A stretch of 64,000 bases of DNA from Candidatus Hydrogenedens sp. (lineage in GTDB: Bacteria > Hydrogenedentota > Hydrogenedentia > Hydrogenedentales > Hydrogenedentaceae), in contig JBMFRC010000001.1 of the NCBI GenBank assembly GCA_049968235.1, positions 320,001 to 384,000 on the forward strand, in the 5' to 3' direction. Under the pieces are notes generated by a model. It was not told the DNA's origin, made no database searches, and worked only from the letters and a program-made list of their open reading frames with translations. A program made the translations under genes and the position numbers. This document shows positions 6,155 through 25,416 of the stretch, piece by piece; within the stretch, counting starts at the first letter, position 1; every line of letters starts with the position of its first letter.

Positions 6155-9100
6155 ATGAGTAAATCGTGGAGAAGATGTATTTCATTATTAGTTTTCACTT
6201 TGGGTTTTCTGCCATTCCTTTCTATTTCAGCAAAGGAGACAACAGAACCATTACAAAACATTATAGAAAATTATGATAAATATATAGGCAGAGACCTTGT
6301 AATTAATAATCGTGCTCCCAACGCAAAAGTCATTCGCACACTACCTCTCTCATGCCCTCCTTTCCATTTAAGGGATAAAAATGGGGATATTATTGACCCG
6401 ACAAAAAATGCGGATGGGACACCCATTGACCCCAACCTGCCGGTTCAACAGCAAGGAATTCCCAGAGCGGTAAGCACAAAACAGACATGTGGAGCATGTC
6501 ATCCTTATGACAGGATTACTCATGGTTATCATTTTCAGATGGGTCGTGATGAACTTTATCCAGATACAGACCCGAGTAGTGGCGTTCCTAAAGATAAAAG
6601 TCCCGGGTTTTTCGGGAAATGGCTCTCTCTATATCAACGGGAATTGGTAGGAAAACATTTTGAAAATCCTGAACAGGTAGATATGACTCCTTTTGACTGG
6701 ATTGTAAATTGTGGAGTATGTCATCCCGGTGGTGGACCTGCTGAATATGACCGTTCCGGTAAAAATTATGCAACGGTGAAAAAAACAAGTCCATTAGCAG
6801 GTTCTTTTGGGGATGGAGATTACCACGAATCCCCATGGGAAAAAACAGGGGTTATTGAAGCGGATTGTTTCATTTGTCACCTTGAAGATTATGAATATTC
6901 CCTTCGTGCTCAACAGATAAAAAAATGGAACTTCGAATATGCAGCAACTGCGGGTGCTGGCTTTGGTTTCGTTTGGGGCTCAACCATTGATGGACAAGAG
7001 CCCAAAGTTTACTATAACAAAAGCCTTTTCCGTGCAGATGGAACAGTGCACCTACACATTCGCCGTCCAACAGACCGTCAATGTATGTTCTGCCATGATA
7101 TGTCCAGTGTTCAGAAACGTGGAATTTCATGGCACTCTCCATATATGCAGGATGTTCACACAGAACAAGGTCTGAAATGTATTGATTGCCACCATGGTGA
7201 TATCCGCCACAATTTTGCAAAAGGAGATTCTTCTATACAAACAGTTCGCGATGATTTGGATAATACAATTTTATCCTGTAAAAAATGTCATTACCAACAG
7301 GAAAAAGGCGCCCCGTACCCCGAACATAAAGGATTACCTCCTTTACATCTGGAACGGATAGATTGTACAGCGTGCCATATAACGCATCGTCCATTCTTGC
7401 CTGTATCTATTATTGACCCATTAACAGGCAAAGCCATAACTTTACCGGAAATCCAGGATATGAATTATTGGGGAGCCTTTGAATTCGGCGGTTTTTGGGG
7501 TTGGTCGCGAAGTAGAGACGATGCAAATCTTATATTTCCTTATACCGAAGACCAATTAAAGCAGGCTAAGGAATATATTATTTCTAATGAAGACAATATT
7601 CGCAAAATGTTCAAAGAAGCATTTTTGACAGACCTGCCCGAAGGGAATATTAAAGTCGCCGATTTCATCCAGCAAAAACAGGGACTTGAAAATTCAGAAG
7701 CCCGTGGATTAATGCTGATTACATTATCCCAATTAGTCCGTCCTGCAAAAGAAGCATTCCCGGTTGTTGTTTTCCGAAATCAAGCATACTCCTACGATGC
7801 CGGGCAAATACGGGAATTAAAAACAACACCACAACCGAAACGACCCGGTGCTACTATTATCGAATCTTCTTTTGATTTAGGTAGAAGTAAACCTGATGGA
7901 AAAATCTATGCTCAGAATACTCAGGTTTCCGCATATTGGGTTTATACTGATGGGGAGGAGGTTCGTCCTGTATTGCTTAAAGACATGAAGAAGGCTTACG
8001 ACTGGTTAACATCACAAGAATATAGTTTCTCTCTTTATTCCGCACAGCCTCAGAATGGACAGACTTCTCCTGCACTTCCGGAAAATCCATTCAAACAGGC
8101 ACAACAGACAACTACAACCTCATCGGAAAATACCGGAGCATTACAATCGCAAACATCTCCTCCCTCAGATACAGCAGAACGTAAAAAGACAGCGGAAGAA
8201 GTTCGTCAAATAGCAGAGATGGAAGAAAACCTAAAATCTGCTATACAGAAAAAAATAAAGGTATATTCCACATCGGACACTCGACCATTAAAAATTTATG
8301 ACGATAACAATGATACCTTCCCCGAAGTAAATTCTCAGGAAGAAATCGGCTTGTTCGCATGGGCACTTAAACAGACTGTTCCATCGCTACGCGAAAAAGA
8401 TTTATATTACTTGAGAGGAACCACTGTTTTTCGTGTTAGTGTTAAAGGCGGAGAAAATCCTTATGACCGTGAGTTTTTAGATATGGACCGTATTGGTGAG
8501 AATAAACCTTTCATAGCCATTACGAGATACGAACAGAAAGAAGAATCCGGTGAATATAGTTGGGACAAACCGAAACAAGTTTGGAAACCTGTCGAAATAC
8601 GACTTTGTTCGCCGTATGAAGCAGAGATTGTGCAAGTTGACCCGAAGGCATATCCATCTATTATCGCTATGGCAAAACCATTAGAATGGACTGTCTCTCA
8701 TGGTGTAGAACCTGCAAGCCGTGCATACGGTGCTAAAGGTTGTACAGAGTGCCATTCAGAAAATTCTTCATTCTTCATGGGTAGTATGCTCGTAGACCCA
8801 TTTTCTGAAAACGGGACGCCCAAATATGTTCCCCTATGGCATATCTTGGGCTACGATATTTCCAACTTGAAAATAGGAGCATGGCGCGAAGGTGTATTGA
8901 AAAAATATGCCCCATGGATTGTGCTCATACAATTATTACTCATTCTTGTACACTATGTCCTTATCGGGAGAAAAGAAGGAACACCTGTTGGGAAACCTAA
9001 TGTCCTTCGTTTCCGTTTTTATGAACGAATAGCCCATGCGATTGCCATGATTAGTGTTACATTCCTGGCTATTACGGGTTTCTTCTTCCTTATGGGTCAA

Positions 9101-9601
9101 CATGACCCCTTAGGACCCTGGGCAAGGGTGTGGCATACATGGTTTGGTTATGTCGCATGTGCGGGTGTTGTATTTATCTTCTTATCCTGGGTAGCCTTCA
9201 TGTTCCCTGCTAAAGGGGATTTCCGTTGGTTATTGAAAGCAGGCGGTTATTTAGGTGGTGTTAAAGGACATGTTCCAGCGGGCAAATTTAATGCCGGGCA
9301 AAAAATCCTATTCTGGTTAGCAATACTTGCATCAGGGACCTGTGGAATAACAGGTGTTGTTATGGGACTTAATCGTGGTTTTCACTTCCCAAATCAAGAA
9401 ATATTCTATACGATACACGATATATCTGCACTGGTTATGATTCTGGTACTCATTGCTCATATTTATTTAGCCGCCTTTGTTGTCCCTCACAGTTTGCGGG
9501 CTATTTTCGGAGGAAAGGTAAGCGATATATGGGCAAAAGAACACCATTCACTCTGGGCTTTTACAGTAATTGATGAAAAAAACAATTCATCTGAACATTA
9601 A
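6155..9601 (+). CDS. Octaheme c-type cytochrome fused to a C-terminal dihaem cytochrome b (Ni/Fe-hydrogenase/FdnI-type cyt b) membrane domain; CbcL-like quinone-interacting electron conduit
   Basis: Signal peptide. Eight CxxCH motifs (CGACH, CGVCH, CFICH, CMFCH, CIDCH, CKKCH, CTACH, CTECH). S/T/Q-rich linker. C-terminal ~260 aa has 5 TM helices with His in TM1 (AHAIAM), TM2 (WHTWF) and two in TM4 (IHDIS..AHIYL), the classic bis-haem b ligation pattern. Confidence 0.8.
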   Translation: MSKSWRRCISLLVFTLGFLPFLSISAKETTEPLQNIIENYDKYIGRDLVINNRAPNAKVIRTLPLSCPPFHLRDKNGDIIDPTKNADGTPIDPNLPVQQQGIPRAVSTKQTCGACHPYDRITHGYHFQMGRDELYPDTDPSSGVPKDKSPGFFGKWLSLYQRELVGKHFENPEQVDMTPFDWIVNCGVCHPGGGPAEYDRSGKNYATVKKTSPLAGSFGDGDYHESPWEKTGVIEADCFICHLEDYEYSLRAQQIKKWNFEYAATAGAGFGFVWGSTIDGQEPKVYYNKSLFRADGTVHLHIRRPTDRQCMFCHDMSSVQKRGISWHSPYMQDVHTEQGLKCIDCHHGDIRHNFAKGDSSIQTVRDDLDNTILSCKKCHYQQEKGAPYPEHKGLPPLHLERIDCTACHITHRPFLPVSIIDPLTGKAITLPEIQDMNYWGAFEFGGFWGWSRSRDDANLIFPYTEDQLKQAKEYIISNEDNIRKMFKEAFLTDLPEGNIKVADFIQQKQGLENSEARGLMLITLSQLVRPAKEAFPVVVFRNQAYSYDAGQIRELKTTPQPKRPGATIIESSFDLGRSKPDGKIYAQNTQVSAYWVYTDGEEVRPVLLKDMKKAYDWLTSQEYSFSLYSAQPQNGQTSPALPENPFKQAQQTTTTSSENTGALQSQTSPPSDTAERKKTAEEVRQIAEMEENLKSAIQKKIKVYSTSDTRPLKIYDDNNDTFPEVNSQEEIGLFAWALKQTVPSLREKDLYYLRGTTVFRVSVKGGENPYDREFLDMDRIGENKPFIAITRYEQKEESGEYSWDKPKQVWKPVEIRLCSPYEAEIVQVDPKAYPSIIAMAKPLEWTVSHGVEPASRAYGAKGCTECHSENSSFFMGSMLVDPFSENGTPKYVPLWHILGYDISNLKIGAWREGVLKKYAPWIVLIQLLLILVHYVLIGRKEGTPVGKPNVLRFRFYERIAHAIAMISVTFLAITGFFFLMGQHDPLGPWARVWHTWFGYVACAGVVFIFLSWVAFMFPAKGDFRWLLKAGGYLGGVKGHVPAGKFNAGQKILFWLAILASGTCGITGVVMGLNRGFHFPNQEIFYTIHDISALVMILVLIAHIYLAAFVVPHSLRAIFGGKVSDIWAKEHHSLWAFTVIDEKNNSSEH

Positions 9602-10466: not shown

Positions 10467-10507
10467 CAAGCCCTCCAGTTTCCCAGAGGGCTTGCATAAT
10501 ATTTTTT
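10467..10507 (+). terminator. Rho-independent terminator between convergent genes
   Basis: 11-bp stem tgcaagccctc/gagggcttgca with a 10-nt loop, followed by TAATATTTTTT. Confidence 0.45.
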
Positions 10508-10523
10508 GTTCAAGCAGTGAGTA

Positions 10524-11759
10524 TTATCTTTCGTTAGAATTATTCTTCAGGATTCCCCTTACCTTGCTATTTTGTGTCAATAACAAGAAGGAAAGAATTA
10601 CTAAAACAAATATATCACTCAGATGTGAATTTGTTGAAGGTCCACCGGAACCGCAAGATACAATGAAAGTTCTCTTGGCTCCTTTACTCATTACCAGTAT
10701 AACCTCTGTCCCCTTAACAACTTCAGTTCCAACAGAGGGCTCGGTTCGGATTATGCTCCCTTTCGGTACATCTTTGCTATATTCTTCTTTAATCGTTGCG
10801 GATACCTTAAGTCCTGCAGATGTTAGTATTTGAATAGCCTCGTCTTTAGATTTTCCTTTAACATCCGGCACTTTTACTTTCTGAATAGGTTCTCCTTCAT
10901 TACTTCCTTCGGGAGTACCTTCAACTACACCTTCAGGGGTTCCTTCTGGACTACCTTCCTGATGACCTTCGACTGTTCCTTCGCCTTCTGCATTCCCTTC
11001 GACAGAACCTTCTGTGCTTCCTTCTATACTACCCTCTTGCATACCTTCAGGAATGCCTTCTGTTGAACCTTCTTGTGCTCCTTCTCCTTCGAGAGTGCCT
11101 TCTATTATACCTTCTTGCTGTCCTTCGGTGATTCCTTCAACATTTCCTTCGCCTTCTGCAGGCGGTTCTAATGGAAGTATTTTAGGTGCTTTCGGGTCAT
11201 CAAACATGGGAACATAAGCAAATATATCGTTGATTTGGACTTGAGCCAAATTTATTTGTGCATCCCCGGTTTGTTTCATACGGAACAATACTTTGAGCAA
11301 TTCAAGACTTCCCTTAGCACCGATATTTTCAGAACTGCTTCCTGCAATTTTCAGACTACCTGTAGCATTTGCATTAGAGTTATAACTTAACTTCATATTG
11401 CTAACTGCATCACCTAATACGACCTCCATTACCTCCGCATATTCTTTATCGAAATTAATTACAAGAGAGAAGCCCGCTATATTGGATACATTGTTCATTA
11501 CCACAGATACCCACTTTTCAGAGCCTGCTGTTCCAGATAAGTAATCTGTTAATTGGGCATAAACAGTTGCATCCTCTTTTTCTACTCGTGCAAGGGTAGA
11601 CTCCGCAGACAAAGAACCTGCATCTGCCAGCCATTTTAAGTCGCTTATATAGTCTTCATAACTCTTTGCGTCTATTTTCTTTCCTGTTGGCATTACATCT
11701 TTACCTGTTAACCAGCGTTGTAGCATGCTGGAGTCAGCACTATCCACCATTCCATCCAT
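10524..11759 (-). CDS. C-terminal fragment of a disrupted giant surface protein: dockerin-like start, cohesin-like domain, xEGxxEG acidic repeat, PASTA domain, C-terminal Gly/Ser-rich + hydrophobic + basic tail
   Basis: ORF begins inside a dockerin repeat (GDFNMDGMVDSADSSMLQRWL continues upstream in another frame). Homologous to 11846-14179 and to the intact 20173-25416 protein. Tail SCGSGGP...FVLVILSFLLL...KVRG. Confidence 0.55.
   Translation of the reverse strand: MDGMVDSADSSMLQRWLTGKDVMPTGKKIDAKSYEDYISDLKWLADAGSLSAESTLARVEKEDATVYAQLTDYLSGTAGSEKWVSVVMNNVSNIAGFSLVINFDKEYAEVMEVVLGDAVSNMKLSYNSNANATGSLKIAGSSSENIGAKGSLELLKVLFRMKQTGDAQINLAQVQINDIFAYVPMFDDPKAPKILPLEPPAEGEGNVEGITEGQQEGIIEGTLEGEGAQEGSTEGIPEGMQEGSIEGSTEGSVEGNAEGEGTVEGHQEGSPEGTPEGVVEGTPEGSNEGEPIQKVKVPDVKGKSKDEAIQILTSAGLKVSATIKEEYSKDVPKGSIIRTEPSVGTEVVKGTEVILVMSKGAKRTFIVSCGSGGPSTNSHLSDIFVLVILSFLLLTQNSKVRGILKNNSNER
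10870..11170 (-). repeat. Imperfect 12-nt-periodic coding tandem repeat (nnnnccttc on the + strand) encoding xEGxxEG acidic linker
   Basis: Visible periodicity of ccttc every 12 nt. Protein EGNVEGITEGQQEGIIEGTLEGEGAQEGSTEG... Similar tracts at 12955-13135, 13558-13700 and 20335-20445. Confidence 0.7.
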
Positions 11760-11845
11760 ATTAAAGTCACCGGATTTCTGAATACAGGGATTTCCTCCTG
11801 TGTTATTTGTCCAATAATCCAGGATATATTGTGTGTCTAAATCGT

Positions 11846-14179
11846 TTACTTCATATTATTATCCGCATCACCAAAGACACATCCGTCTGTAACACACAAT
11901 TGTCCATCTTCTAATATAAGTTCTAACGGTTGTGTAAATGAGGAGATCACATCGTATAGGCGAACTCCATTGCCGGCTCCATCATCCGGAATAAGGTGTA
12001 ACTGTCCACATAAAGGACCTAAAACAGATAAATTGGGTTTAGCAATAATATTAAACAGAGTCCCAGCACCATACAAACTTTCTGCTTTTATTCCTGCTGC
12101 AGCAATTCGAACATTAATTGTCTCACCTTGAGGTATAGCTAATGATGCTATCATCATCCCACTAGTAATACCTGATGGTAATACGGTGATAGTCTCGGGG
12201 TCTGATATTAAGGCAGATGGCAATTCCGAATCAATCTGTATGGATGTTGCTGAAACATCATAAACTGATTTTGAGTTCACGGGAATACGAATAAGTATTT
12301 CATCAAGATTTTGTGGATTCGGTTGTAGCCAATAAAGACTGGTATCTGTTATATTAACCTGTTCAGGGAAGAATACGGTTAAGTATTGTCCACGAACCGT
12401 CTCCGAAGCATCTGATAACACAGTATAACGGTCCACATCACTTACAGCCTGTATGGCATATTGGTAGTAAATCCCTAATTCTACCGCATTATCTATATAT
12501 TCTAATGTTGTTAGATAACCTTCATAAGGCAACCTGTCCGGATTATTCAATCGTTGCCAATCTGTCAATGAATTCCCATCTCTATCTACTGTCCTGCGAT
12601 ACACATTATAGCCAGCAATATTATACTCAGGATTTGTATCCCATGCTACGCGAACACTATGCGGTCCACTATAAGGACGTGGACGGAATGATTTTTGAAT
12701 ATTTCCGGGGTCTAATTCAACAAGCAATTCAGCATTGGTATCCACAGGTTGTATCGTTTTGGGCTTATATTTCCGCTTTGTAAAGTCCAAACGATATGGC
12801 GGTTGCAATGTACCTAAATCTGGAAAGGCAAAACGTCCATTATTATCTGTTAGCACAGGTTCATTCCCTTTACTATCTGCAACGCTAATTTGGACTAATA
12901 CACCGGGAATCGGGCTTTTGCTTATACTATTTATCACCTGACCACGAACACCTGCATATTCGCCTTCGAATGTCCCTTCCGTAGTTCCTTCAATAGTTCC
13001 CTCCGGAATTCCTTCAATTACTCCTTCAGGTATTCCTTCAACATTACCATCCATAGGACCTTCGGGAATCCCTTCGATAACACCTTCAATTGTTCCTTCC
13101 GTTACACCTTCAGGTGTCCCTTCTTCACAGGGTCCTGTGGAAACCCAGATATCCACAGGTATTTCTATTGTATTCTCATAATTACAAGTGCCTTCTACAG
13201 CCATAGGTTCTTGCAAAGCGATGTATCCAGCGGGATAATTATTATCACATACCTCAACAATCTGTCCTAATAATAATCCATAATCTACAATTAATTGTTG
13301 TGCCTCTTCCAATGACATACCTATAACATTAGGAACTATGGTACAGGGTCCACAAGAGATAATCAGGTCAACGATTGTTCCAATCTCTACTGTATTTCCA
13401 CCACCGGGTATTTGTTCAACGACTGTGCCTGCCGGGTATTGGTCATTGCACATCTCAATAATAGCACCAATATTTAGGTTGGCATTACTAATTTCTCCCG
13501 TTGCTTCCTGTTGCGGAAGTCCTATCATATATGGAACTATAGTTGTTTCAATAGCACCTTCGCCTTCAGACATCCCTTCGCCTTCAGACATCCCTTCGCC
13601 TTCGAATAGCCCTTCTGAACTGCCTTCAATACTACCTTCGGTAGTTCCTTCAAATGAACCTTCTCCTTCTACAATACCTTCAACTACACCGGGTTCAGGC
13701 TCTCCAATAACAGGATTGAGTGGGTCTTCAAATCTTGGGGTATGTCCATATTTATCGTGTATCTGAACCTGAACAAATTTAATATCGCCTTTTCCATCTC
13801 GCTTAATCTTAAACTTTACTTTTACCAATTCAACTTCTCCAGAGGTTCCCAACTCTTCTTCACCTCCCGCACTTATCCGCAAACTGCTACTGGAACCAGA
13901 ATTTACTACTTCATAATTCCATCGCCATATATTTGCTGCATTCACAGGTTTTACCTGCTTTACTTCAGCAAAATCACTATCATAATTCAAGACAAATTCA
14001 AATCCTGCCACATTTGTTACTTCATCAGCCACAATGGCAATCCATTTATCACTGCCTGCAGACCCTTCTAATGTGCCACGGAACCACACCTTTACTCCCA
14101 CATTATTCTTTTCTAATTTGGCTAACTTTGCTTGTGCGGATAGGGAACCATGGGAAGCTAACCATTTCAATTCATCCAC
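11846..14179 (-). CDS. Central fragment of the disrupted giant surface protein: cohesin-like, EG repeats, 2 PASTA-like, EG repeats, carboxypeptidase-regulatory-like, FN3, dockerin start
   Basis: 777-aa ORF. Its frame stays open upstream of the annotated Met into a dockerin repeat, interrupted only by an in-frame TGA at 14270-14272. The C-terminal GDADNNMK* continues as a dockerin after a frameshift near 11840. Confidence 0.55.
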   Translation of the reverse strand: MDELKWLASHGSLSAQAKLAKLEKNNVGVKVWFRGTLEGSAGSDKWIAIVADEVTNVAGFEFVLNYDSDFAEVKQVKPVNAANIWRWNYEVVNSGSSSSLRISAGGEEELGTSGEVELVKVKFKIKRDGKGDIKFVQVQIHDKYGHTPRFEDPLNPVIGEPEPGVVEGIVEGEGSFEGTTEGSIEGSSEGLFEGEGMSEGEGMSEGEGAIETTIVPYMIGLPQQEATGEISNANLNIGAIIEMCNDQYPAGTVVEQIPGGGNTVEIGTIVDLIISCGPCTIVPNVIGMSLEEAQQLIVDYGLLLGQIVEVCDNNYPAGYIALQEPMAVEGTCNYENTIEIPVDIWVSTGPCEEGTPEGVTEGTIEGVIEGIPEGPMDGNVEGIPEGVIEGIPEGTIEGTTEGTFEGEYAGVRGQVINSISKSPIPGVLVQISVADSKGNEPVLTDNNGRFAFPDLGTLQPPYRLDFTKRKYKPKTIQPVDTNAELLVELDPGNIQKSFRPRPYSGPHSVRVAWDTNPEYNIAGYNVYRRTVDRDGNSLTDWQRLNNPDRLPYEGYLTTLEYIDNAVELGIYYQYAIQAVSDVDRYTVLSDASETVRGQYLTVFFPEQVNITDTSLYWLQPNPQNLDEILIRIPVNSKSVYDVSATSIQIDSELPSALISDPETITVLPSGITSGMMIASLAIPQGETINVRIAAAGIKAESLYGAGTLFNIIAKPNLSVLGPLCGQLHLIPDDGAGNGVRLYDVISSFTQPLELILEDGQLCVTDGCVFGDADNNMK

Positions 14180-14182
14180 ATA

Positions 14183-15574
14183 TCCTTTGCCCGCTGTTGA
14201 GATTTTTGGAGGTGTAATACTTTTTCTTGCTAACCAACGCTGAATTAAACTGGAATCCGCACTATCTACTCACCCATCGAGATTAATATCTCCTGATTTT
14301 AAGATGCATGAATGTGCACCTACTTTCCTAACCCAATAATCCAGAACAAATTGCTCATCTGTACTATCAATTACACTATCATTATTTACATCTCCATGAA
14401 TACATCCCCCTGAAACGCATAATCGTCCATCCACAAGAAGCACAGGTAAGGTTCTGTCTGATTTTGAATTACATTATATAACCGAACACCATTTCCCACA
14501 CCATCATCAGGAACTAAATGTAATAAACCACACTCATTCAAAAGATTTAAGCGAGGTTTTGCAAGAATATTAAATAATACTCCAGAACCATATAAACTCT
14601 CTGCTATCCCACCAGCAGATGATATACGAACATTAATTTTATCTCCATTTCTAACGGCATTGGCACTTATATTCATACCTGCGGTAATACCTGAGGGCTC
14701 CACCGTAATTGTGTCGGGATTGAGCAATAAACTTCTGGGCAATTCCGCATCGATTTGTATGGAAGTAGTGGAAACATCATATACAGCCTCTGAATTAACA
14801 GGTATTCTTACTAATTGTTGTTATGGATTTTGAGGGTCTCTTTCCCAGAGAAACATACCGCTATCTTTATAATTTACTTGTTCCGGGAAGAAAATAGTTA
14901 AAAATTGCCCTACTACATCTTCCGAAGCATCCGAAAGATTGGAATAACGGTCGACATCACTAACTGCCTGTATTGCATATTGATAGCGAATACCCGGTTG
15001 TATTGCGGTATCTGTATATTCTAATCCTCCAATATATCCTTCATAAGGAGGTAATCCCGGATTATTCAATTTTGCCCAAATAGAACTTCCTACTGTCCGA
15101 CGATATACATTATAGCCAGCAATGTTATATTCAGGATTTGTATCCCATCCAATACGGACACTATTGGTTCCTCCATAAACACGAGGAATGGTGGGTCTCT
15201 GAATATTTCCCGGCTCTATTTCCGCAAAAAGTTCTGCACCCGAATCAACAGGTTGAACCGTTTTCGGTTTAAATTTATTCTTTGTAAAATCCAGACGATA
15301 GGGAGGTAATAAACTCCCTAAATCGGAAAATTCAAATAGCCCATTTTTCATCTGTTAAAACAGGCTCTGTACTCTGTTTATCTGCAATACTTATTCCAAC
15401 AAGTACTCCCTCTACAGGTTTTTTGCTAATACTGTTAATAACCTGTCCCTTAACACTAAAGACTTTTTCTGCTACTGCTTGATTAGTAATAGCACATGCT
15501 ATTACTAATAGTGATATGCTCAAAAATATATTATTTTTTACAAAAATTGACTTTGCCCTACTTTTTGCATTCAT
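14183..15574 (-). pseudogene. N-terminal portion of the same giant surface protein (signal peptide, CarbopepD_reg-like, FN3, cohesin-like, dockerin), broken into ORFs 15332-15574, 14821-15351 and 14386-14742 by a frameshift and in-frame stops
   Basis: Paralog alignment with 11846-14179 (e.g. YRLDFTKNKFKPKTVQPVD vs YRLDFTKRKYKPKTIQPVD). TAA at 14821-14823 sits in-frame between two ORFs (DPQNP*QQLVRIP vs paralog NPQNLDEILIRIP). Frameshift in an A/T run at ~15341-15349. Frameshift at ~14430-14450. TGA at 14270-14272 where the paralog has ATG (DG*VD vs DGMVD). Confidence 0.55.
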
Positions 15575-15745
15575 TTTAGGTCTCCTTTGATTTATTCGCT
15601 CCAGTAGTTGGTTATTTTTTTATCCTTATTAAATAGCATTTAATAACAAAATTTGCCTGTTTTTTTGATAATCGTTGCCTCAAATAAGAACTATGATTCT
15701 TATGTGATTAGTGGTGAATAGAAGAAAATAATACTATTTTTAGAC

Positions 15746-16843
15746 TCACTTCCCATCAACTTCACGAATAGTAAACTTCATATTTAAAATTTTCCCTTCC
15801 CGAAAAACCTTCATTTCCACAGAGTCACCGATAAATAAATCCCAATTTATAAAATCCACATCTGAAGGGTCTTCGACAGGTTGGCGGTTAATCTCTATGA
15901 TTACATCACCAGGACGCAATCCTGCCTGATACGCTGGACTTTCTTTTAATATTCGTGTTACGAAAACTCCTTTATCTACCCGAATACCTAATTCTCGTAG
16001 AAGTCGGGAGTCTATTGAATCAAGAGATTCCGTTTTAAATCCAAACCATGGGTCGCGACGTTTCCCAAATTTAATCAGTTCTTCCGCTACACGACGGACA
16101 CGATTGATGGGTATAGCAAAACTTAATCCCTGATACCCACCCGTTTTAGAAAAAATCATGGTATTAATCCCAATAACTTTACCCTGGCTGTTAACCAGAG
16201 GTCCTCCGCTATTGCCCGGATTTATTGCCGCATCGGTTTGAATAAGGTCCTGATATAATCGAGTATCTCCGGAAACATTTCGACTCACTTTACGATGAAC
16301 GGCAGATACAACACCTACACTGACCGTAGGACGAGGATCTTTCATTAGTGAACCAAAGGGATTTCCTATGGCGATAACCCATTCTCCAATATATAAATTA
16401 TCTGAGTCACCTAAAGGAATATAGGGGAAGTTCTTTCCACTCGCTTTCAGCACTGCAATATCTGTCCGCGGGTCCGCACCAATAAATTCTACATCCAGTT
16501 TTTCACCACTTGAAAGAGTTACAGAATTAATTTTACTGGCATTTTCCAGTACATGGTAGTTTGTTAAAATATACCCCGCCTCATCAAAAATAAATCCGCT
16601 ACCGATGGAAGAAATTTGCTGACGACGAATGGGAAAACCGAACAACTCAAAGAACGGGTCTAAATCGTCTGATTGATACTCTACCACATTGATAGTTACC
16701 ACTGCGGGTGATGCTTTTTCTACCGCTGTTACTATCGCATTGCGTCGTGAATCTGATATACTGTCCTGCGAAATCGCAGGGGGTGTGTAAAATATCAAAA
16801 TAAAAAGCAGTGTTATAATACTAATGAAGATATTTTTCTGCAT
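15746..16843 (-). CDS. htrA: HtrA/DegP family periplasmic serine protease with PDZ domain
   Basis: Signal peptide. Catalytic triad contexts TNYHV, DIAVLK, GNSGGPL. C-terminal PDZ. Confidence 0.9.
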   Translation of the reverse strand: MQKNIFISIITLLFILIFYTPPAISQDSISDSRRNAIVTAVEKASPAVVTINVVEYQSDDLDPFFELFGFPIRRQQISSIGSGFIFDEAGYILTNYHVLENASKINSVTLSSGEKLDVEFIGADPRTDIAVLKASGKNFPYIPLGDSDNLYIGEWVIAIGNPFGSLMKDPRPTVSVGVVSAVHRKVSRNVSGDTRLYQDLIQTDAAINPGNSGGPLVNSQGKVIGINTMIFSKTGGYQGLSFAIPINRVRRVAEELIKFGKRRDPWFGFKTESLDSIDSRLLRELGIRVDKGVFVTRILKESPAYQAGLRPGDVIIEINRQPVEDPSDVDFINWDLFIGDSVEMKVFREGKILNMKFTIREVDGK

Positions 16844-16933
16844 AAGTGAATCCTTTTGCTTTAATTAAAATATAACTAATATTTTACTATAATTAAGAAA
16901 TAAGTTGCTCTGATACATGAGGAGATACGGTTT

Positions 16934-17925: not shown

Positions 17926-20184
17926 ATGCATTTCTGGCTGATTAATGACAATGTTTTATTAAAATCTTCCCGTGCAGACATCGGTGGAAAAGGCTGGGGG
18001 CTGGTTCGATTAAAATTACAGGGATTAAATGTGCCACCTTTCGGAATAATCAGCACAGAAGGTGTGAAATATAAACTCTGGAAAACCGATACAGATTTTC
18101 AAAATGCAATAATGGCATGGTGTAAAGAGATATGGGATTGTTCCATAAGTAAGAAAGTAATCGTCCGCTCATCTGCATGTGAGGAAGACCATCAACATCA
18201 TTCTTTTGCAGGAAAGTTTTTAACAGAGGTTATAACAAAGCCAGAAGAACTTGTTCCAACACTGGACAGGATAGCCAAACATTATGCTTTAACTATAAAA
18301 ATGGATACGGGGAATTTTTCTGAAGGTCCCCATGGACTTGCAATTATTCTCCAGGAGTTTGTCAGTGGTGAAATCTCCGGCGTATGCTTTTCGACCCGAC
18401 CTATGAATGCAAATCCTCAACAAGTATATTGTGAAGTAGTAAATGGTGAAAATAAGTTGTTGGTTGATGGGGAAATACAACCCACTCGGATACTTTTTTA
18501 TCCCTCCACCGCAGAATTGATAGATTTTCAGGAAGGTTCTAATGGACCTGAATCAATACCTGAAGAATTATTAATAGAATTATCTCATGGGCTAATGAAG
18601 ATGGAATGGGATTACCGCACTGCAGTGGATATGGAATGGACATGGAATGGTAACAAGGTATGGTTTTTACAGATTCGCCCAATTACAAAGGTAACTCCTT
18701 CCCATAATTTATATCCAAAGGAATGTGCTACTTGCTGGTTTTTTGACCAACGTTTTATTGAACCGATTACAACTATTACCCAAACCACACTTATTCCGTT
18801 AATCCTGAGAAAGGCAATCACAGAGGGACTTAACATGCGACGAAAAAATACCCCCATTGAACCGTATTACTTTGGGGGTCAGGTGTATATCCCCCATCGG
18901 GCTTACTTCGATTTACTGGAGGGTTGTCCTAAATGGTGGCTTTCCTCCGATTTAAAACTGTTATTCCCTAATAACTGTGGTTGCCCGCATAAAAAAAAGA
19001 ACTTCCTGGGAATAGAATTCTGGCTGGATGCTTTTCGTTCATTGTTAAAACACTGGCGTGATGCTATTTTTGTGTTATGTCGCTGGGGACAATGGAAGAA
19101 GGATTTATCAAAGAAATTAAGTCTGTGGAATAAGGAGGATTTGTCAGAGATTACAACAGATGAATGGGTAACGCAATGGGAGCAATGCCAGAGATTATCC
19201 GAAGAATTTTTAGAAATACATCGCTGGGCAATACTCTGGTCCAGTTATGTATATCGTTTAGGGGGAAAGTATATCGTTCGTGGTAAGGAAAGACAGTATC
19301 CCTCTATTACGACACGGGCAAATCACATATTGACATCTTATTTATTCACCCGTGACATAAAATTATTAGCCCTCCTTCGCACTGAATATTCACACCGCAC
19401 AGAAAGTCTCGATTTTATATCTCCTCGATGGGGAGAATGGCTTTCCGGTGAGGAACAAAATGAATTGTTTAAAACGCAATTATTAGAGGAGAGGAAAGAT
19501 ATTCCATTAACATCACTGCAAACAAGGGAAAAAGCAGGTATTCTGTATCGTATTTTCGCAAAGTTTATACATCTGCGTGAGGAACAACGATTTGAATGGG
19601 AAAAAATATTAAATGTACAGAAAAAATTATTAAAGGAAGCAGGTAAACGATTGGTAGAAAAAGGTATCTTGATGGAGATAAATCAGGTCTGGTTTATAAG
19701 CGGGCTGGAATTAATGGAAGCACTTATAAAGGATAAGCCAATTAATCTAAAAGAAGTTTTGCTACGCCAACATCAATGGTGCGTTGAACATATATTTACA
19801 AAACCATTATTTATCAACGAAGGTGGTTTCATACTATCTACTTCCGAAAAAGATAAAGATACATGGTCAGGCTGGGGTGTGTCCGAAGGAAGAGTAAAAG
19901 GGACTGCCTATGTGAGCAGTAATCCGACTTCACTCCCATCCAATATCGCACATCCTCGTATTCTTGTAACACCTTGTTTAAATCCCGGACAGACATGGTG
20001 TCTGCAATACTGGGACGGTGTTCTATTGGAACGAGGCAGTGAACTGTCTCATCCTGCTATCATTGCACGGGAGATGAATATCCCCATGATTGCGAATTTA
20101 CCTGAGATTACACATAAACTAAACACGGGCGATTTAATTTATATAGATGCAACTTATGGTAAAGTTAGCCGTTTAAAATCTTAA
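17926..20184 (+). CDS. PEP-utilizing enzyme family protein (PEP synthase / pyruvate phosphate dikinase-like; PPDK_N ATP-grasp-like N-domain + phosphohistidine mobile domain)
   Basis: N-terminal GGKGWGLVRL resembles the PEP/pyruvate-binding N-domain. C-terminal mobile domain with SHPAIIAREMNIP (phospho-His motif). 752 aa. Confidence 0.65.
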   Translation: MHFWLINDNVLLKSSRADIGGKGWGLVRLKLQGLNVPPFGIISTEGVKYKLWKTDTDFQNAIMAWCKEIWDCSISKKVIVRSSACEEDHQHHSFAGKFLTEVITKPEELVPTLDRIAKHYALTIKMDTGNFSEGPHGLAIILQEFVSGEISGVCFSTRPMNANPQQVYCEVVNGENKLLVDGEIQPTRILFYPSTAELIDFQEGSNGPESIPEELLIELSHGLMKMEWDYRTAVDMEWTWNGNKVWFLQIRPITKVTPSHNLYPKECATCWFFDQRFIEPITTITQTTLIPLILRKAITEGLNMRRKNTPIEPYYFGGQVYIPHRAYFDLLEGCPKWWLSSDLKLLFPNNCGCPHKKKNFLGIEFWLDAFRSLLKHWRDAIFVLCRWGQWKKDLSKKLSLWNKEDLSEITTDEWVTQWEQCQRLSEEFLEIHRWAILWSSYVYRLGGKYIVRGKERQYPSITTRANHILTSYLFTRDIKLLALLRTEYSHRTESLDFISPRWGEWLSGEEQNELFKTQLLEERKDIPLTSLQTREKAGILYRIFAKFIHLREEQRFEWEKILNVQKKLLKEAGKRLVEKGILMEINQVWFISGLELMEALIKDKPINLKEVLLRQHQWCVEHIFTKPLFINEGGFILSTSEKDKDTWSGWGVSEGRVKGTAYVSSNPTSLPSNIAHPRILVTPCLNPGQTWCLQYWDGVLLERGSELSHPAIIAREMNIPMIANLPEITHKLNTGDLIYIDATYGKVSRLKS

Positions 20185-23100
20185 GTTCGAAAGGTCTGAC
20201 TTGTCCAACGGGTGTTCTCTCCTTCGCATACCACTCATAGCAAGTAATAACATGCCCATCAACACAAAATCCAATAGATATTTTAACCAATTGTCTCCAT
20301 CCCTGGATTTATGATTACACCCACAAATTCCAGTATTTTGCCCCTCTCCTTCCCCTTCTCGAGTGCCCTCAACATTCCCTTCCACTATTCCTTCCGGATT
20401 ACCTTCTTGAGTTCCTTCCAGAGTTCCTTCACTAACTACTATACCTGCTTCTGCTTTATCAATATATCCATCCTTATTGGTATCAGCACTATCAAAAGTA
20501 TCTCGGGACAGGGTGGAATATCGTGCCACTGCTTCTTCATAGGAAACTTTCCCATCCTTATTCGTATCCACCAAATCAAAATTTGTTTTTAGGTCATTTA
20601 TGAATTGCTCTACCCCGGTTATGGTAATAGAAGCACCTTTTGCATTAATTACTCCATACCAACTCAGGTCATCTCCAAATTCCCCCTTTATTTTTACTTC
20701 GCGTATTTGAATGTTTATTTTCTTTGATGTCATCGTTGTGGGTTTAAACTTTATTTGTATAATTCGTCCTTTTTCTTTTGTTGTAATGGGTTTTTCGCTA
20801 CTTATTGAAACTTTCAAATAACCCTCACCGACTTCTGTATCCTTCTTAAAGTTGCTGGCAATATCTGCCATGTTTAATCCGTAGAAATTTATACCTTCAT
20901 CATAGGTTAAGAGCAAATCCATTCCCGCAACACCTAATAATGAACTTAATTCTATACCTGTGCGATATTCATTGTTTGAGTCCGGTGTTAGGTTATCTAC
21001 AACAATTTCCACCGTACGATTATTTTCCGTTTCTAACAAGGCTTTTTCCCCAATCACGGTTGAACTCGGATTGATTGGAAGCCCTGCCAATTTACGCAGT
21101 AGTAACGACACATCCGCACAATCTAAAATTCCATCTCCATTAAAATCACCTCTCCGTTTATCACATTCCAAATCAACAATACCTGCTTTGCGAACAATCT
21201 TGCGCAGGAACACAATCGTATCAGACATACCAATGTAACCATCAGTATCCATATCTCCATAGATGCAACGACTACTAATACAATTCGTATCTGGGTTTTC
21301 TTCCAATACATTGAGTTGTCCATGAACCAATTCTACTGGCAATTCCTTCTGCTGGGTATCTTTAATAATAACCTTCTGCAATTTCAGGTCTGTATCCTGA
21401 GCACAACTTCCTGCCACTGTATTCTGTCGCACACGAAAAACCATATCAAAGAGGTGTCCTTCTCCATAAAGCACTTTCTTCTCATTATCAACTCTGGGTC
21501 CCGCATGGAATTTTATAACACCCTGTGTACGGGTATCCGAAACAACCTCAAGATTTCGTGTTACAACCGTTTTTTGAACCTCTACAAGTTCAAGCACTGT
21601 GTTGTTGTAACTCACATTAATATCAATCGTATAGGGTTCCAATCCCCGTACACTGTTTATATTTATCGGTATCTGAATTGTATCCCCACTTCCTTCTGGT
21701 ATCCAATCGATTGTAGGTATCCATACACGTAGCTTACCCGGTTCTGCTTTGACAGGCTCTGTAGGGTCGCTTTGTTGTTGATTGGTAGCAATAGCAATCA
21801 AACGATAATACCATGCCCGAGAGGTATCCACTTCGTTATCTGTGTAATTTGTACCTGTAATAATATTTGAGGAAACAGTAATCCACGGTCCGTTTCGTGT
21901 TTCGCTTCGTTCTAATTGGTATCCTGCAAGATTTCGCTCCACATTAGGCTCCCAGATAAGATAAACATGGTCTATCCCTGAAAAAACCTGCAATCCATGA
22001 GGGGTTGAAATCTTTGTCCCAGCAGGGTCAGGACCATTACTTACAATTAACTCAACCGTTGTTCCGTTCAATACGGAACTTCCTCCAACAGGAGATTGTC
22101 CCATTACAACATTTTGTGAAACGGTATCGCTATACTGCATTACTGTACGGGTCAGCAAACCCGTAGATTGGATTTGCCCTATTGCAGAAGTTATATTCTG
22201 CCCAATAACATCCGGTACCGTGATATATGTGTTTCCAGAACATTGTCCTGTTGAAACCCAAATTGTAACTTCCGCACCTCGATTTACTCCACTATAAGCA
22301 ATTGGTGATTGGCGTATTACCTGCCCCATGGCAACATAATTGTTACATTCCCGTTCCACCTTAACATGCAAATCCGCTATCTGTATTGCCTCATTCGCCT
22401 GCTGTTCGCTTCTCCCTACAACATCTGGAACCAATACACCCGGACATAATCCACTGGATACAGTTAACTGAATATAGGTTCGTGATGAAATTACATCTCC
22501 CGATGATGGGATTTGACTCAGGACATTTCCCTGTGCCACTGTGTTACTACAGTTATAAGTCGTACGGATTCTATTCAGTCCTACACCTTCAAGAGTGTTT
22601 TTTGCTTGTTGTTCTGTCATACCGACCACCCCCGGAATAGTTACGAAGATTTCTCCTTCTCCTGTTCCTTCGCCCTCTCCCTCTCCTATAAGGTCTACAA
22701 TCCATTTAAGTAATGGATAATCTGTCCCTTCATTTGCAACCCATATATTAACAAAATCCCAATCGTTGTATGTTGCTTGCTTATACATTTCTATTGTGGT
22801 TTTTCCTGTTCCACCATCGGAAAACGATGTCCCGGCAGATTGCACATCCCAATAACTGGACACTACTGTTCCTCCATCGTTATACCCAACAAGCCCACCA
22901 ACATATAGTTTCCCCGTAACATTGGCACTGCTATAACAATTACGAATATTTGTTTCAAAAGAATTCTCAGTATTCATTTGGTACCCAACCAATCCACCGA
23001 TAAACGAATTTCCGCCAACAAAGGAATCATAAACAAAACTATCTGTTATATTGCCACCATAATTTATCCCTACAAAACCACCCACTCCATAATCAGCTGT

Positions 23101-25416
23101 TTCGCCATTCACAAGTATTTCACCGGCAACACATCTTAATATTTTCCCCTTATTTCCACCGACGAATCCACCAATACTATCATCTTGGCTTATTCCCGAA
23201 ATATAACTTGCCAGGACACCACATTCCACAATTTCACACTCACTATCAACAACAACACCCGCTATAGCACCCACAAAATAATACCCTGTAAAACTACTTT
23301 CAACAATTATTAAATTTTGAATCTTTCCCGGAGAGGTTACAATCCCAAACAGAGCTGTATAATCCGCCTCAGAATTATCAATATAAAGGTTAGAAATAAT
23401 ATGGTTTTGCCCATTAAAATTACCTCTAAATGGTTTTTCCCATGTTCCTATGGGTCTAAACCCTTTCCCATTATTCCAGTTGACTGTATCACTTGCATCT
23501 ATATCTTGAGTCAAAATATATGAACCAAAAGGTGGATAATCCGGGTCATTCCCTATCTTTTGCAACTCCTCAATACTATCTATTTCAATAGTTGGACAGG
23601 GACCTTTGAAAACGAACAAATATACTTCGCTGTTCTGTATAACTTGTGCTCCACCTTCGGGTGATTGACCTATAACAGTACCCACCGGAGTAATTTCTTC
23701 ACCGCACCCATAATCGACAATTACATGGAAACCCATTTCTTGTAGAGTAGTAACAGCATTTGCTTCTGTCATTCCCATTACATCCGGCATGTTAACATAA
23801 ACACAGCGTCCTGTTGAAACAACAATATATACAGTGCTATCTATTTGCACAACATTTCCTGCAATGGGTTCCTGCTCTATAACAACCCCTTCAGGAATAT
23901 TGTCATCACAACGGTATAGGACATTGGCAGAGAGATTTTGTACCTGAACTGTATTTATAGCGGTAGTTTCATCCATCCCGATAACATCAGGTATTGTTAT
24001 AGAACAGGGTCCTCGTGAAATAAGCAAAGAAATCTCCACATCAGGTAATTCATTTGTGCCCGGTACGGGGTTTTGAGTTATCACTGCCCCAGAAGGAACT
24101 CCATCATGGCAATCATAATATGTAGTGATTGTACCCGTAAACCCGGAGGAACGAAGTAAATTTATAGCTTCTGTCCCATTCATTCCTACAACATTAGGTA
24201 GGGGGATGAAACACGGACCTGTGGACACAATAATGGAAACAGTACCATTAAGCTCAACCGATGCCCCTGCTCCGGGCTGTTGGTCCATAACTACCCCCGC
24301 AGGATATATATTGCTACAACTATAAGACACATCAGCAATCAATCCCAATCCATTTAACATATTAACTGCATTTTCTTCCATCATTCCTAACAAACTTGGA
24401 ACTTCCACCGTATGTTGTATATTTATAACCCATCTCAAATAGGGATAGTCTGTTCCCTCTTCTATACCCCATACATTCGTGAAATCCCAGCCTGCATAAG
24501 TCGCCTGTTGTTTCATTTCTCCCGTAGTTTTCCCTGTTCCACCATCAGAAAAGAACATTTGGGACACAGTCGTATCCCAATAACTGGATGTTACAGTCCC
24601 CCCATCATTAAATCCGATAAGTCCACCTATATACATGGTTCCTGCTACAGCCGAACTACTATAACAATTTGTAACTGTGCCAGTGCTTTTCTTTGAATTT
24701 TCGAGTATTCCAACCAGACCACCGACACCGTATGCTCCTGCTATTGAGGTGATATATGAAGATGAATACACACAACTATTTATAATAACTCCACCTGTAT
24801 TACGACCCACCAATCCACCCACTCCATATTGAGCATAACTATCATAAATTGTCGAATTAGAAACTACACATCTATCTATAACTCCATAATTTCCTCCTAC
24901 CAATCCACCAACACTATTATATATGCTTCCCATCCCTTCAATATCTGAAGAGGCAACTCCACATTCTCTGATTTCTCCCGCCATATTTAATCCAACCAAT
25001 CCCCCGATAAATAAAGAACCTGCGATATTGGAATTAAATAAAATAACATTGTGAACATTCCCGCCGGATATATTTCCAAACAAACCTGCAAATTCAGATT
25101 GTCTATTAATATAAAGATAGTAAATACCATAATTCTGACCATCAAAACTCCCTGTAAATGGATTATTCGTATCCCCTATCGGTTTAAATCCTCTGCCACT
25201 ATCCCAATTAATTGTATCGCTGGCATCTATATCCCGTGTTAATACATAATTCCCGTTAAGTGGATATTCAGGCTCATTCCCTATTCTCTGCAAATCTACA
25301 ATATTGCTTATAGGAATACCTTGTGCGGAAACCAAAATACACATGCAAAAAACAAAAATGGTCAATAGTGATAAAATATAGGTAGATTCTCTCGTAGACA
25401 TTTTACAATACCTCAA
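20173..25416 (-). CDS. Giant (1747 aa) secreted multidomain surface protein: signal peptide, 2 GLUG-motif modules, ~7 PASTA domains, FN3, cohesin-like, type-I dockerin, cohesin-like, EF-hand/dockerin-like pair, xEGxxEG repeat, C-terminal hydrophobic+RRR tail
   Basis: Signal peptide MSTRESTYILSLLTIFVFCMCILVSAQG. Repeated GGLVG (GLUG). PASTA pattern PxV[IV]GM..xxA...L...G....V repeated. Dockerin GDMDTDGYIGMSDTIVFLRKIV...GDFNGDGILDCADVSLLLRKLAG at 21101-21265. Tail GICGCNHKSRDGDNWLKYLLDFVLMGMLLLAMSGMRRRE. Confidence 0.8.
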   Translation of the reverse strand: MRYCKMSTRESTYILSLLTIFVFCMCILVSAQGIPISNIVDLQRIGNEPEYPLNGNYVLTRDIDASDTINWDSGRGFKPIGDTNNPFTGSFDGQNYGIYYLYINRQSEFAGLFGNISGGNVHNVILFNSNIAGSLFIGGLVGLNMAGEIRECGVASSDIEGMGSIYNSVGGLVGGNYGVIDRCVVSNSTIYDSYAQYGVGGLVGRNTGGVIINSCVYSSSYITSIAGAYGVGGLVGILENSKKSTGTVTNCYSSSAVAGTMYIGGLIGFNDGGTVTSSYWDTTVSQMFFSDGGTGKTTGEMKQQATYAGWDFTNVWGIEEGTDYPYLRWVINIQHTVEVPSLLGMMEENAVNMLNGLGLIADVSYSCSNIYPAGVVMDQQPGAGASVELNGTVSIIVSTGPCFIPLPNVVGMNGTEAINLLRSSGFTGTITTYYDCHDGVPSGAVITQNPVPGTNELPDVEISLLISRGPCSITIPDVIGMDETTAINTVQVQNLSANVLYRCDDNIPEGVVIEQEPIAGNVVQIDSTVYIVVSTGRCVYVNMPDVMGMTEANAVTTLQEMGFHVIVDYGCGEEITPVGTVIGQSPEGGAQVIQNSEVYLFVFKGPCPTIEIDSIEELQKIGNDPDYPPFGSYILTQDIDASDTVNWNNGKGFRPIGTWEKPFRGNFNGQNHIISNLYIDNSEADYTALFGIVTSPGKIQNLIIVESSFTGYYFVGAIAGVVVDSECEIVECGVLASYISGISQDDSIGGFVGGNKGKILRCVAGEILVNGETADYGVGGFVGINYGGNITDSFVYDSFVGGNSFIGGLVGYQMNTENSFETNIRNCYSSANVTGKLYVGGLVGYNDGGTVVSSYWDVQSAGTSFSDGGTGKTTIEMYKQATYNDWDFVNIWVANEGTDYPLLKWIVDLIGEGEGEGTGEGEIFVTIPGVVGMTEQQAKNTLEGVGLNRIRTTYNCSNTVAQGNVLSQIPSSGDVISSRTYIQLTVSSGLCPGVLVPDVVGRSEQQANEAIQIADLHVKVERECNNYVAMGQVIRQSPIAYSGVNRGAEVTIWVSTGQCSGNTYITVPDVIGQNITSAIGQIQSTGLLTRTVMQYSDTVSQNVVMGQSPVGGSSVLNGTTVELIVSNGPDPAGTKISTPHGLQVFSGIDHVYLIWEPNVERNLAGYQLERSETRNGPWITVSSNIITGTNYTDNEVDTSRAWYYRLIAIATNQQQSDPTEPVKAEPGKLRVWIPTIDWIPEGSGDTIQIPININSVRGLEPYTIDINVSYNNTVLELVEVQKTVVTRNLEVVSDTRTQGVIKFHAGPRVDNEKKVLYGEGHLFDMVFRVRQNTVAGSCAQDTDLKLQKVIIKDTQQKELPVELVHGQLNVLEENPDTNCISSRCIYGDMDTDGYIGMSDTIVFLRKIVRKAGIVDLECDKRRGDFNGDGILDCADVSLLLRKLAGLPINPSSTVIGEKALLETENNRTVEIVVDNLTPDSNNEYRTGIELSSLLGVAGMDLLLTYDEGINFYGLNMADIASNFKKDTEVGEGYLKVSISSEKPITTKEKGRIIQIKFKPTTMTSKKINIQIREVKIKGEFGDDLSWYGVINAKGASITITGVEQFINDLKTNFDLVDTNKDGKVSYEEAVARYSTLSRDTFDSADTNKDGYIDKAEAGIVVSEGTLEGTQEGNPEGIVEGNVEGTREGEGEGQNTGICGCNHKSRDGDNWLKYLLDFVLMGMLLLAMSGMRRREHPLDKSDLSNLRF

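Follow-up and report, generated by a model that had tools for sequence, protein, structure and literature searches.

Introduction

Cohesin-dockerin pairs are the plug and socket of the cellulosome and are widely used in protein engineering. To our knowledge, what these pairs do outside the cellulolytic Firmicutes is mostly unknown. Here, we analyzed a 64-kb stretch of DNA from Candidatus Hydrogenedens sp. (assembly GCA_049968235.1, contig JBMFRC010000001.1, positions 320,001 to 384,000), which we call the window. One of its genes, gene A, encodes a protein in which a type I dockerin (Doc) lies between two cohesins, Coh1 upstream and Coh2 downstream, and we refer to these three modules as the triad. 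In our best reading, Coh1-Doc-Coh2 forms one conserved supra-module, which belongs to the non-cellulosomal surface proteins of Hydrogenedentota and neighboring candidate phyla.

In Archaeoglobus fulgidus, cohesin and dockerin are combined in single proteins. The non-cellulosomal cohesin of that archaeon (Protein Data Bank [PDB] entry 2xdh) is the best solved match for Coh2 (profile E = 1e-13; template-modeling [TM] score, 0.73 to 0.81), and the two cases share a non-cellulolytic setting with cohesin and dockerin outside a cellulosome. However, in the family described here the dockerin is fixed between two cohesin subtypes, the arrangement is conserved in well over a hundred sequence clusters, and it lies beside a putative membrane anchor. 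In the amylosome of Ruminococcus bromii, Amy4/Sca1 carries one cohesin and one dockerin per polypeptide and is reported to self-associate by way of these two modules (10.1101/2025.03.31.646359). Unlike gene A, Amy4 is a Firmicute GH13 enzyme with one cohesin followed by a C-terminal dockerin, and it has neither a conserved triad nor a membrane anchor of its own. The planctomycete "planctosome" adaptor, Doc-HYR-Coh, also places both modules in one protein, and a non-cellulolytic role has been proposed for it (PMC6461901). In this adaptor and in cellulosomal adaptor scaffoldins the bridging modules are loosely linked, whereas the triad is predicted to be compact, has a fixed order, and comes with its own payload and anchor. 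Finally, in the X-module-dockerin dyads of types II and III (e.g., Clostridium thermocellum CipA XDoc; 3kcp, 4fl4, and 2b59) a beta-sandwich is rigidly coupled just before the dockerin, and the composite recognizes the cohesin partner; the triad may be analogous. Unlike the X-module, the sandwich that precedes the dockerin here is a cohesin by sequence and predicted fold, and neither 3kcp nor 4fl4 superposes on the triad model (root mean square deviation, 16 to 18 Å).

The modules themselves are known, as are non-cellulosomal cohesins and dockerins; the conserved Coh1-Doc-Coh2 supra-module is new. The phrase "cohesin-dockerin-cohesin" occurs in no paper in a full-text search of 8 million texts, and a full-text literature search found no paper combining cohesin, dockerin, and Sumerlaeota. 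The papers matched for Hydrogenedentes were surveys of metagenome-assembled genomes from biogas systems. There is no Pfam or NCBIfam model for the unit, and the public annotation of the proteins that carry it is generic ("PASTA / cohesin / LRR domain-containing").

Results

Gene A carries a dockerin between two cohesins

The original prediction, made from the letters of the window alone, placed a dockerin at 21101-21265 between two beta-sandwich modules and described the whole as cohesin-like, dockerin, and cohesin-like modules in one protein. This arrangement was borne out, with the dockerin core refined to residues 1387 to 1445 (21258-21082), GDMDTDG starting at 21258 and ...LLRKLAG ending at 21082 (Table 1). 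The dockerin scored 23.9 bits against Pfam Dockerin_1 (PF00404; cutoff, 22.9), and the dockerin part of the family profile matched many solved type I dockerins (e.g., 2ccl_B at 8e-9). AlphaFold2 (AF2) modeled it as three helices with a predicted local distance difference test (pLDDT) score of 93 to 97. It has the two repeats of a type I dockerin, each about 22 residues long and made up of a D-x-[ND]-x-[DN]-G...D Ca loop and a helix.

Coh1 scored 45 bits against Pfam Cohesin (PF00963), for which the cutoff is 24.1, and matched the family Coh1 profile at E = 6e-38; its AF2 model had a pLDDT mostly above 90. When the AF2 model of the triad was compared with the PDB by Foldseek, the best single-cohesin matches had TM scores of 0.78 to 0.82 at about 20% identity, and from that identity we assigned these matches to Coh1. 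For Coh2, which had no Pfam match when it was scanned alone, the evidence came from relatives and from structure prediction. It matched the family Coh2 profile at E = 5e-34 and was homologous by BLASTP (E = 4e-6) to the downstream modules of a paralog in the window, which themselves passed the Pfam Cohesin cutoff (24.4 and 29.8 bits). The Coh2 part of the family profile matched solved cohesins, with 2xdh at E = 1e-13 and also the clostridial 2vn5 and 1g1k, and a Foldseek search with the AF2 model of Doc plus Coh2 returned cohesins for all of the top 50 PDB matches (TM, 0.73 to 0.77). The AF2 models had a pLDDT of about 90 and point to the nine-stranded beta-sandwich of the cohesin fold for both modules. 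Thus, by sequence profile and predicted fold, both flanking modules are cohesins, and the structure prediction for which the earlier reading had called did not yield unrelated immunoglobulin (Ig) folds.

The triad recurs as one unit in uncultured phyla

A word-indexed homology search with the single triad returned one fragment only, so an exhaustive HMMER search was needed. With the 378-amino-acid (aa) triad as the query against 1.84 billion cluster representatives, it returned 523 representatives with E <= 1e-3, of which 178 reached E <= 1e-10; counts out of 150 below refer to the best 150 of the 523. The entire triad was matched in a single stretch in 111/150, and position-specific profiles found exactly one Coh1-Doc-Coh2, in the same order, in 123/150, which upholds the claim that this is a conserved module and not chance. 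A profile scan of genome contigs was saturated by the generic dockerin pattern and confirmed at least two full triads. The protein in the window is 100% identical to an NCBI entry named [quoted passage not shown] and the named family members belong to Candidatus Hydrogenedentota, Sumerlaeota/BRC1, and Auribacterota.

The chance explanation would have an EF-hand pair between two generic Ig-like sandwiches, or modules otherwise mis-called. It could draw on the missing Pfam match of gene A Coh2 and on a dockerin that clears its cutoff by 1 bit and is weakly matched by EF-hand models. Against that stand the profiles, the predicted folds, and an order that recurs in 123 of the 150 representatives, which refute it, and we regard it as very improbable.

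An FN3 domain usually stands before the triad. The other domains vary widely (LVIVD, WD40, LRR, RCC1, Calx-beta, PKD, BACON, InlB B-repeat, DUF4214, and FGE-sulfatase). A leucine-rich-repeat protein (P0008) and a WD40 protein (P0022) share three GenBank accession series, so one genome encodes several triad proteins with different heads. In many family members the triad adjoins a putative C-terminal anchor. About 51/150 end, as gene A does, in a Cys motif followed by a transmembrane helix and a basic tail. Separately, 13/150 (P0010, P0017, P0018, P0077, P0088, P0146, and others) have no transmembrane anchor and end in W-x-L-Y(-E) a few residues past Coh2; this terminus may be a different attachment or secretion signal. 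A C-terminal regular expression found an extra dockerin-like motif at the end of 12/150 representatives, and in 12/150 profile-based domain calls showed a further dockerin on one side of the triad or the other. Three independent metagenome contigs (L001 to L003, carrying P0001) break at one and the same point of the homologous gene, immediately upstream of Coh2. Short-read assembly probably fails in the repetitive part that lies upstream, and the family is therefore likely to be under-counted in public data.

We considered whether the triad could be the adaptor scaffoldin of a cellulosome-like system, with the dockerin plugged into a separate anchoring protein and the cohesins recruiting dockerin-bearing proteins. 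The modules are of canonical types, a Doc-HYR-Coh adaptor has been proposed for Planctomycetes (PMC6461901), and dockerin-only (P0134 and P0133) and multi-cohesin (P0091) proteins appeared among the weaker matches. However, the sole multi-cohesin match with a name is a true clostridial scaffoldin, from Acetivibrio clariflavus, and gene A has its own putative C-terminal anchor. There was no carbohydrate-active enzyme (CAZyme) domain or carbohydrate-binding module (CBM) in gene A or in the ten family members scanned, and no dockerin-only or cohesin-only gene in the window. The strict 1:1:1 stoichiometry, fixed order, and compact prediction also differ from beads-on-a-string scaffoldins, and we consider an adaptor role unlikely. 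Dockerin-bearing CAZymes on multi-cohesin CBM scaffoldins, the mark of cellulosomes and amylosomes, were found neither in gene A and the ten scanned members nor in the window; this system is not a cellulosome.

A disrupted paralog holds two further triads

The same dockerin-then-cohesin order had been predicted to recur twice in a disrupted paralog. It does, and both units in addition have an upstream cohesin, so that each is a full triad. Each unit reads, in order, CarboxypepD_reg, FN3, Coh1, Doc, Coh2, a Glu/Gly-rich (E/G) linker, and PASTA. In BLASTP comparisons between modules, gene A Coh1 matched the paralog Coh1 modules at E = 1e-5 and 1e-4, the dockerins were 35 to 42% identical, and gene A Coh2 matched the paralog Coh2 modules at E = 4e-6 and 2e-4, whereas Coh1 against Coh2 inside one protein was insignificant. 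Judged by these comparisons, the two cohesins are distinct, position-specific subtypes, with each paralog module closest to the gene A module in the same position. Profiles built from the wider family confirmed the Coh1, Doc, and Coh2 assignments, giving three triads in the window, and a scan of all 64 kb with these profiles found no further cohesin or dockerin.

The paralog is interrupted five times, by three frameshifts (+1 in an A5 run near 15340, a TT/TTT indel near 14440, and an AATAAT indel near 11850) and two in-frame stops (TGA at 14270-14272 and TAA at 14821-14823). The unit 1 triad is broken by the second frameshift and the TGA, and the TAA lies just upstream of it; the third frameshift falls inside the unit 2 dockerin, which reaches 26.9 bits against Dockerin_1 after frame correction. 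All three indels fall within short repeats, so they could stem from sequencing error, from phase variation, or from genuine decay. A public record (JBMFPN010000006.1, GCA_049969095.1) differs from the window at 3 of 14,334 bases (14823, 18277, and 18537). At 14823 the window has A where the record has G, which turns the record's CAA Gln codon into the TAA stop; the remaining disruptions are present in the record as well.

Co-varying cysteine pairs and an asymmetric dockerin in the family

Anatomy statistics were taken from 112 aligned triads. The linker between Coh1 and Doc is almost constant (median, 9 residues; 10th to 90th percentile, 9 to 11), with a 7-residue insertion in gene A, and the linker between Doc and Coh2 has 13 to 31 residues (median, 21) and is the least confident part of the AF2 model. 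The gene A dockerin contains Cys1379, Cys1384, and Cys1418, and Coh1 contributes Cys1338 at the start of a late strand. C1338 occurs with C1379 (both in 53 triads, neither in 52, discordant in 7; Fisher P = 7e-24), and C1384, three residues before the first Ca loop, occurs with C1418, between the dockerin repeats (both in 49, neither in 58, discordant in 5; P = 2e-25). In mean-field direct coupling analysis (DCA) on about 110 effective sequences, with the maximum of five block shuffles (<=1.03) as the control, these two couplings ranked first and third among all position pairs. All four cysteines are present in all three triads of the window. We read the co-varying pairs as two probable disulfides, which would fit an extracytoplasmic location. 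Only four residues separate C1379 from C1384, so that the two disulfides would hold the dockerin fast against the end of Coh1. An inter-domain disulfide between the Cys at position 10 of dockerin repeat 2 (C207) and Coh2 column 273 was rejected, because these cysteines do not co-occur.

Next to the cysteines, the dockerin repeats themselves differ. A dual binding mode is typical of cellulosomal type I dockerins, but the internal two-fold symmetry of recognition residues that corresponds to it was not found among the 112 triads. In repeat 2, positions 10, 11, and 18 are S, A, and R in 69, 93, and 101 triads, respectively (entropy, 1.96, 0.91, and 0.70), whereas the same positions of repeat 1 are variable (3.14, 2.82, and 2.83). 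Within the Ca loops, D1 and D12 show little or no variation in either repeat, and N3 and D5 are strongly conserved in repeat 2 only. Gene A has C1433, A1434, and R1441 at the three repeat 2 positions, and the recognition residues are nearly identical in the three window copies (C/S-A...R). Conservation confined to repeat 2 suggests a single conserved partner surface and a single binding mode. A protein need not have this symmetry to count as a type I dockerin. A conserved GLPxNP follows dockerin helix 3.

A canonical cohesin binds its dockerin through the 8-3-6-5 sheet, and strand 8 is part of this binding sheet in type I complexes. The Coh2 motif L-x-G-x-[YF]-G-x4-W falls in the strand 8 region in an alignment to a Clostridium cellulolyticum cohesin. 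The conserved motifs of Coh1 are L-x-G-E-G-H-L-F-D, which is near-invariant, and T-A-L-T. The GEGHLFD of Coh1 was considered as a dockerin-binding set and is probably not one: it aligns with the generic strand 7 "G-x-F," on the sheet opposite the canonical binding face, a placement that we take from a C. thermocellum cohesin sequence and a local alignment of the N-terminal half only.

The triad is predicted to form one compact body

AF2 run on the triad with a 63-sequence alignment gave a mean pLDDT of 90.5 and a predicted TM (pTM) score of 0.90; for domains of 150, 70, and 140 residues, a value this high implies a defined relative placement of all three. With Coh1 removed and the same alignment, the pLDDT was 88.3, the pTM fell to 0.66, and the pLDDT of the linker dropped below 50, so the predicted placement of Coh2 depends on Coh1. 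The top DCA pairs within domains fit known strand and helix neighbors of cohesins and dockerins. Between domains, Doc L212 coupled with Coh1 V58 (1.53) and Coh1 M99 with Coh2 I262 (1.31), both above the shuffle maximum. V58 lies in the TALT motif, and L212 is position 15 of repeat 2, which shares a helical face with A11 and R18. Columns 58, 212, and 358 switch jointly between A/M/F and V/L/L; the 212-358 coupling is weak. The loss of N223 from GLPxNP goes along with that of Coh1 D98/H95 and of Coh2 W360/G352, column 98 couples with 223, and the Coh2 strand 8 residues G352 and W360 are lost together with dockerin D206, R215, and N223. These patterns hint at a three-way junction, or they could reflect shared ancestry.

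The reading that we prefer, with a probability of about one half, is that Coh1-Doc-Coh2 is a Ca-dependent, disulfide-stapled, self-docked body that carries variable surface heads as a rigid stalk or hub close to the membrane. Several points weigh against it. Just two inter-domain couplings other than the cysteine pairs clearly exceed the shuffles, with about 110 effective sequences and a control that retains shared ancestry. One of the two, 99-262, is weaker as a direct contact because residue 99 looks core-facing from strand periodicity. The data show the identity, order, and conservation of the modules, the pairing of the cysteines, the dockerin asymmetry, and the AlphaFold confidence values, and from these we infer which faces touch, that they do so within one chain, Ca dependence, and the stalk role. 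Single-chain AlphaFold cannot separate contacts within a chain from the same contacts between neighboring chains. With two cohesins per dockerin, one cohesin is formally unpaired. Nor is a self-sufficient canonical Doc-Coh2 pair within the chain supported, given the pTM of 0.66 when these two modules are modeled alone.

The same contacts could instead be made between molecules. In this alternative, cohesin and dockerin surfaces would pair across neighbors, as a daisy chain or domain swap, and join the many triad-bearing paralogs of a cell into a Ca-dependent surface lattice on which diverse binding domains would be displayed. A genome can encode several triad proteins with different payloads, as P0008 (LRR) and P0022 (WD40) illustrate, the window alone holds three triads, and their near-identical dockerin recognition residues would make cross-pairing possible. 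The Doc-Coh2 linker is variable and flexible, and some representatives carry an extra dockerin or dockerin-like motif (12/150 for each). R. bromii Amy4/Sca1, with cohesin and dockerin in one chain, is described as self-polymerizing (10.1101/2025.03.31.646359). However, the single-chain model is confidently compact at a pTM of 0.90, and at its short and nearly constant length the Coh1-Doc junction cannot be a free tether, and we hold self-assembly to be possible but the less probable case.

Layout of gene A and its surroundings

From the N terminus, the gene A protein has a signal peptide, two copies of a GLUG domain with PASTA repeats, the FN3-like domain, and the triad; an EF-hand pair, an acidic E/G-rich linker, and a C-terminal Cys motif with a transmembrane helix and RRR follow (Table 1). 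In the whole protein, Pfam found PASTA in 7 stretches (3e-85), Glug in two blocks (1e-20), one Cohesin, and EF-hands. The FN3-like domain gave only a weak Pfam match when scanned alone (Tissue_fac, E = 0.015); most family members have an FN3 block before the triad, and the domain aligns with this block. The FN3 part of the family profile matches titin and Fn3 chains.

Table 1. Features of gene A and of the broken paralog in the 64-kb window
Feature	Positions	Strand	Description
Gene A	20173-25416	minus	one open reading frame, 1747 aa; ATG at 25401 is the likely start
FN3-like domain	21742-22029	minus	aa ~1130-1225; directly upstream of the triad
Coh1, upstream cohesin	21292-21732	minus	aa 1229-1375; begins LRVWIPTIDW...; includes Cys1338
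Type I dockerin	21067-21282	minus	aa 1379-1450; two Ca-loop/helix repeats, GDMDTDG... and GDFNGDG...; GLPxNP cap
Doc-Coh2 linker	21022-21066	minus	predicted helix in the triad model, low confidence, pLDDT 57-78
Coh2, downstream cohesin	20614-21021	minus	aa 1466-1601; begins EIVVDNLTPDS...
EF-hand pair, DTNKDGKVSYEE ... DTNKDGYIDKAE	20449-20589	minus	EF-hand_5, 7e-13
C-terminal GICGC motif, hydrophobic helix, and RRR	20176-20328	minus	putative membrane anchor or sorting signal, from sequence
Broken paralog	10527-15619	minus	two tandem units, from three-frame translation of 10500-16900
Paralog unit 1 triad	13742-14814	minus	Coh1 14814-14515; Doc 14410 to ~14200; Coh2 14077-13742
Paralog unit 2 triad	11220-12292	minus	Coh1 12292-12005; Doc ~11870-11685; Coh2 11540-11220

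The EF-hand pair after Coh2 is weakly dockerin-like (Dockerin_1, E = 0.0078, under the cutoff) and is confined to the subfamily nearest the window. The pair lies directly after Coh2 and might serve one of the cohesins as a second Ca-dependent partner. The C terminus of the paralog (10527-10640, minus strand), with the Cys motif SCGSGG, a hydrophobic helix, and a basic tail, is comparable to that of gene A. Such a terminus resembles MYXO-CTERM/PEP-CTERM-type sorting signals, but no NCBIfam sorting-signal model matched it at E up to 10, and a sorting enzyme was not searched for; the gene A-type C terminus may be an undescribed sorting signal.

Upstream of the triad, gene A has an internal duplication (22100-25320, minus strand) of two blocks, each a GLUG domain of about 300 aa followed by 4 or 3 PASTA repeats, and the N-terminal segments of the blocks are clearly similar (IPISNIVDLQRIGNEPEYP... 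and IEIDSIEELQKIGNDPDYP...). Extracellular PASTA repeats on a cohesin-dockerin unit are unusual. Elsewhere in the window, 6155-9601 on the plus strand encodes a 1148-aa protein with a multiheme cytochrome c7-like region and a C-terminal cytochrome b561/Ni-hydrogenase b-type domain, and this gene adjoins FMN reductase and ApbE flavin transferase genes.

Discussion

If the triad is a self-docked stalk, its parts would work as follows. The dockerin would fold around two Ca2+ ions and would be held at the C-terminal end of Coh1 by the junction of about nine residues; in roughly half of the family, all three window copies among them, two disulfides would stabilize this junction. Dockerin, Coh1, and Coh2 would then pack into a compact body whose cohesin and dockerin surfaces find their partners in the same chain. 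Near the C-terminal membrane anchor, such a rigid body could act as a stalk or hub that presents variable N-terminal binding domains, which in gene A would be the GLUG and PASTA domains. Coh1 may have a role akin to that of the X-module of type II dockerins, and an X-module-like Coh1 would explain why Doc-Coh2 is not fixed without it.

A broader proposal is possible but not probable in our view. It holds that an undescribed, non-cellulosomal system of surface assembly has the triad as its universal connector. In Hydrogenedentota, Sumerlaeota, and Auribacterota, dozens of paralogs per cell, each with a different binding or enzymatic head, would interlock through their triads into a Ca-dependent modular coat.

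A triad carried on very different heads in uncultured phyla is a concrete object with which to ask what cohesins and dockerins do outside the cellulosome. If it is docked within one chain, it would be a natural single-chain cohesin-dockerin complex, useful for structural modeling and perhaps as a scaffold in protein engineering. If the pairing is between chains, the triad would build a modular lattice of a new kind on the cell surface.

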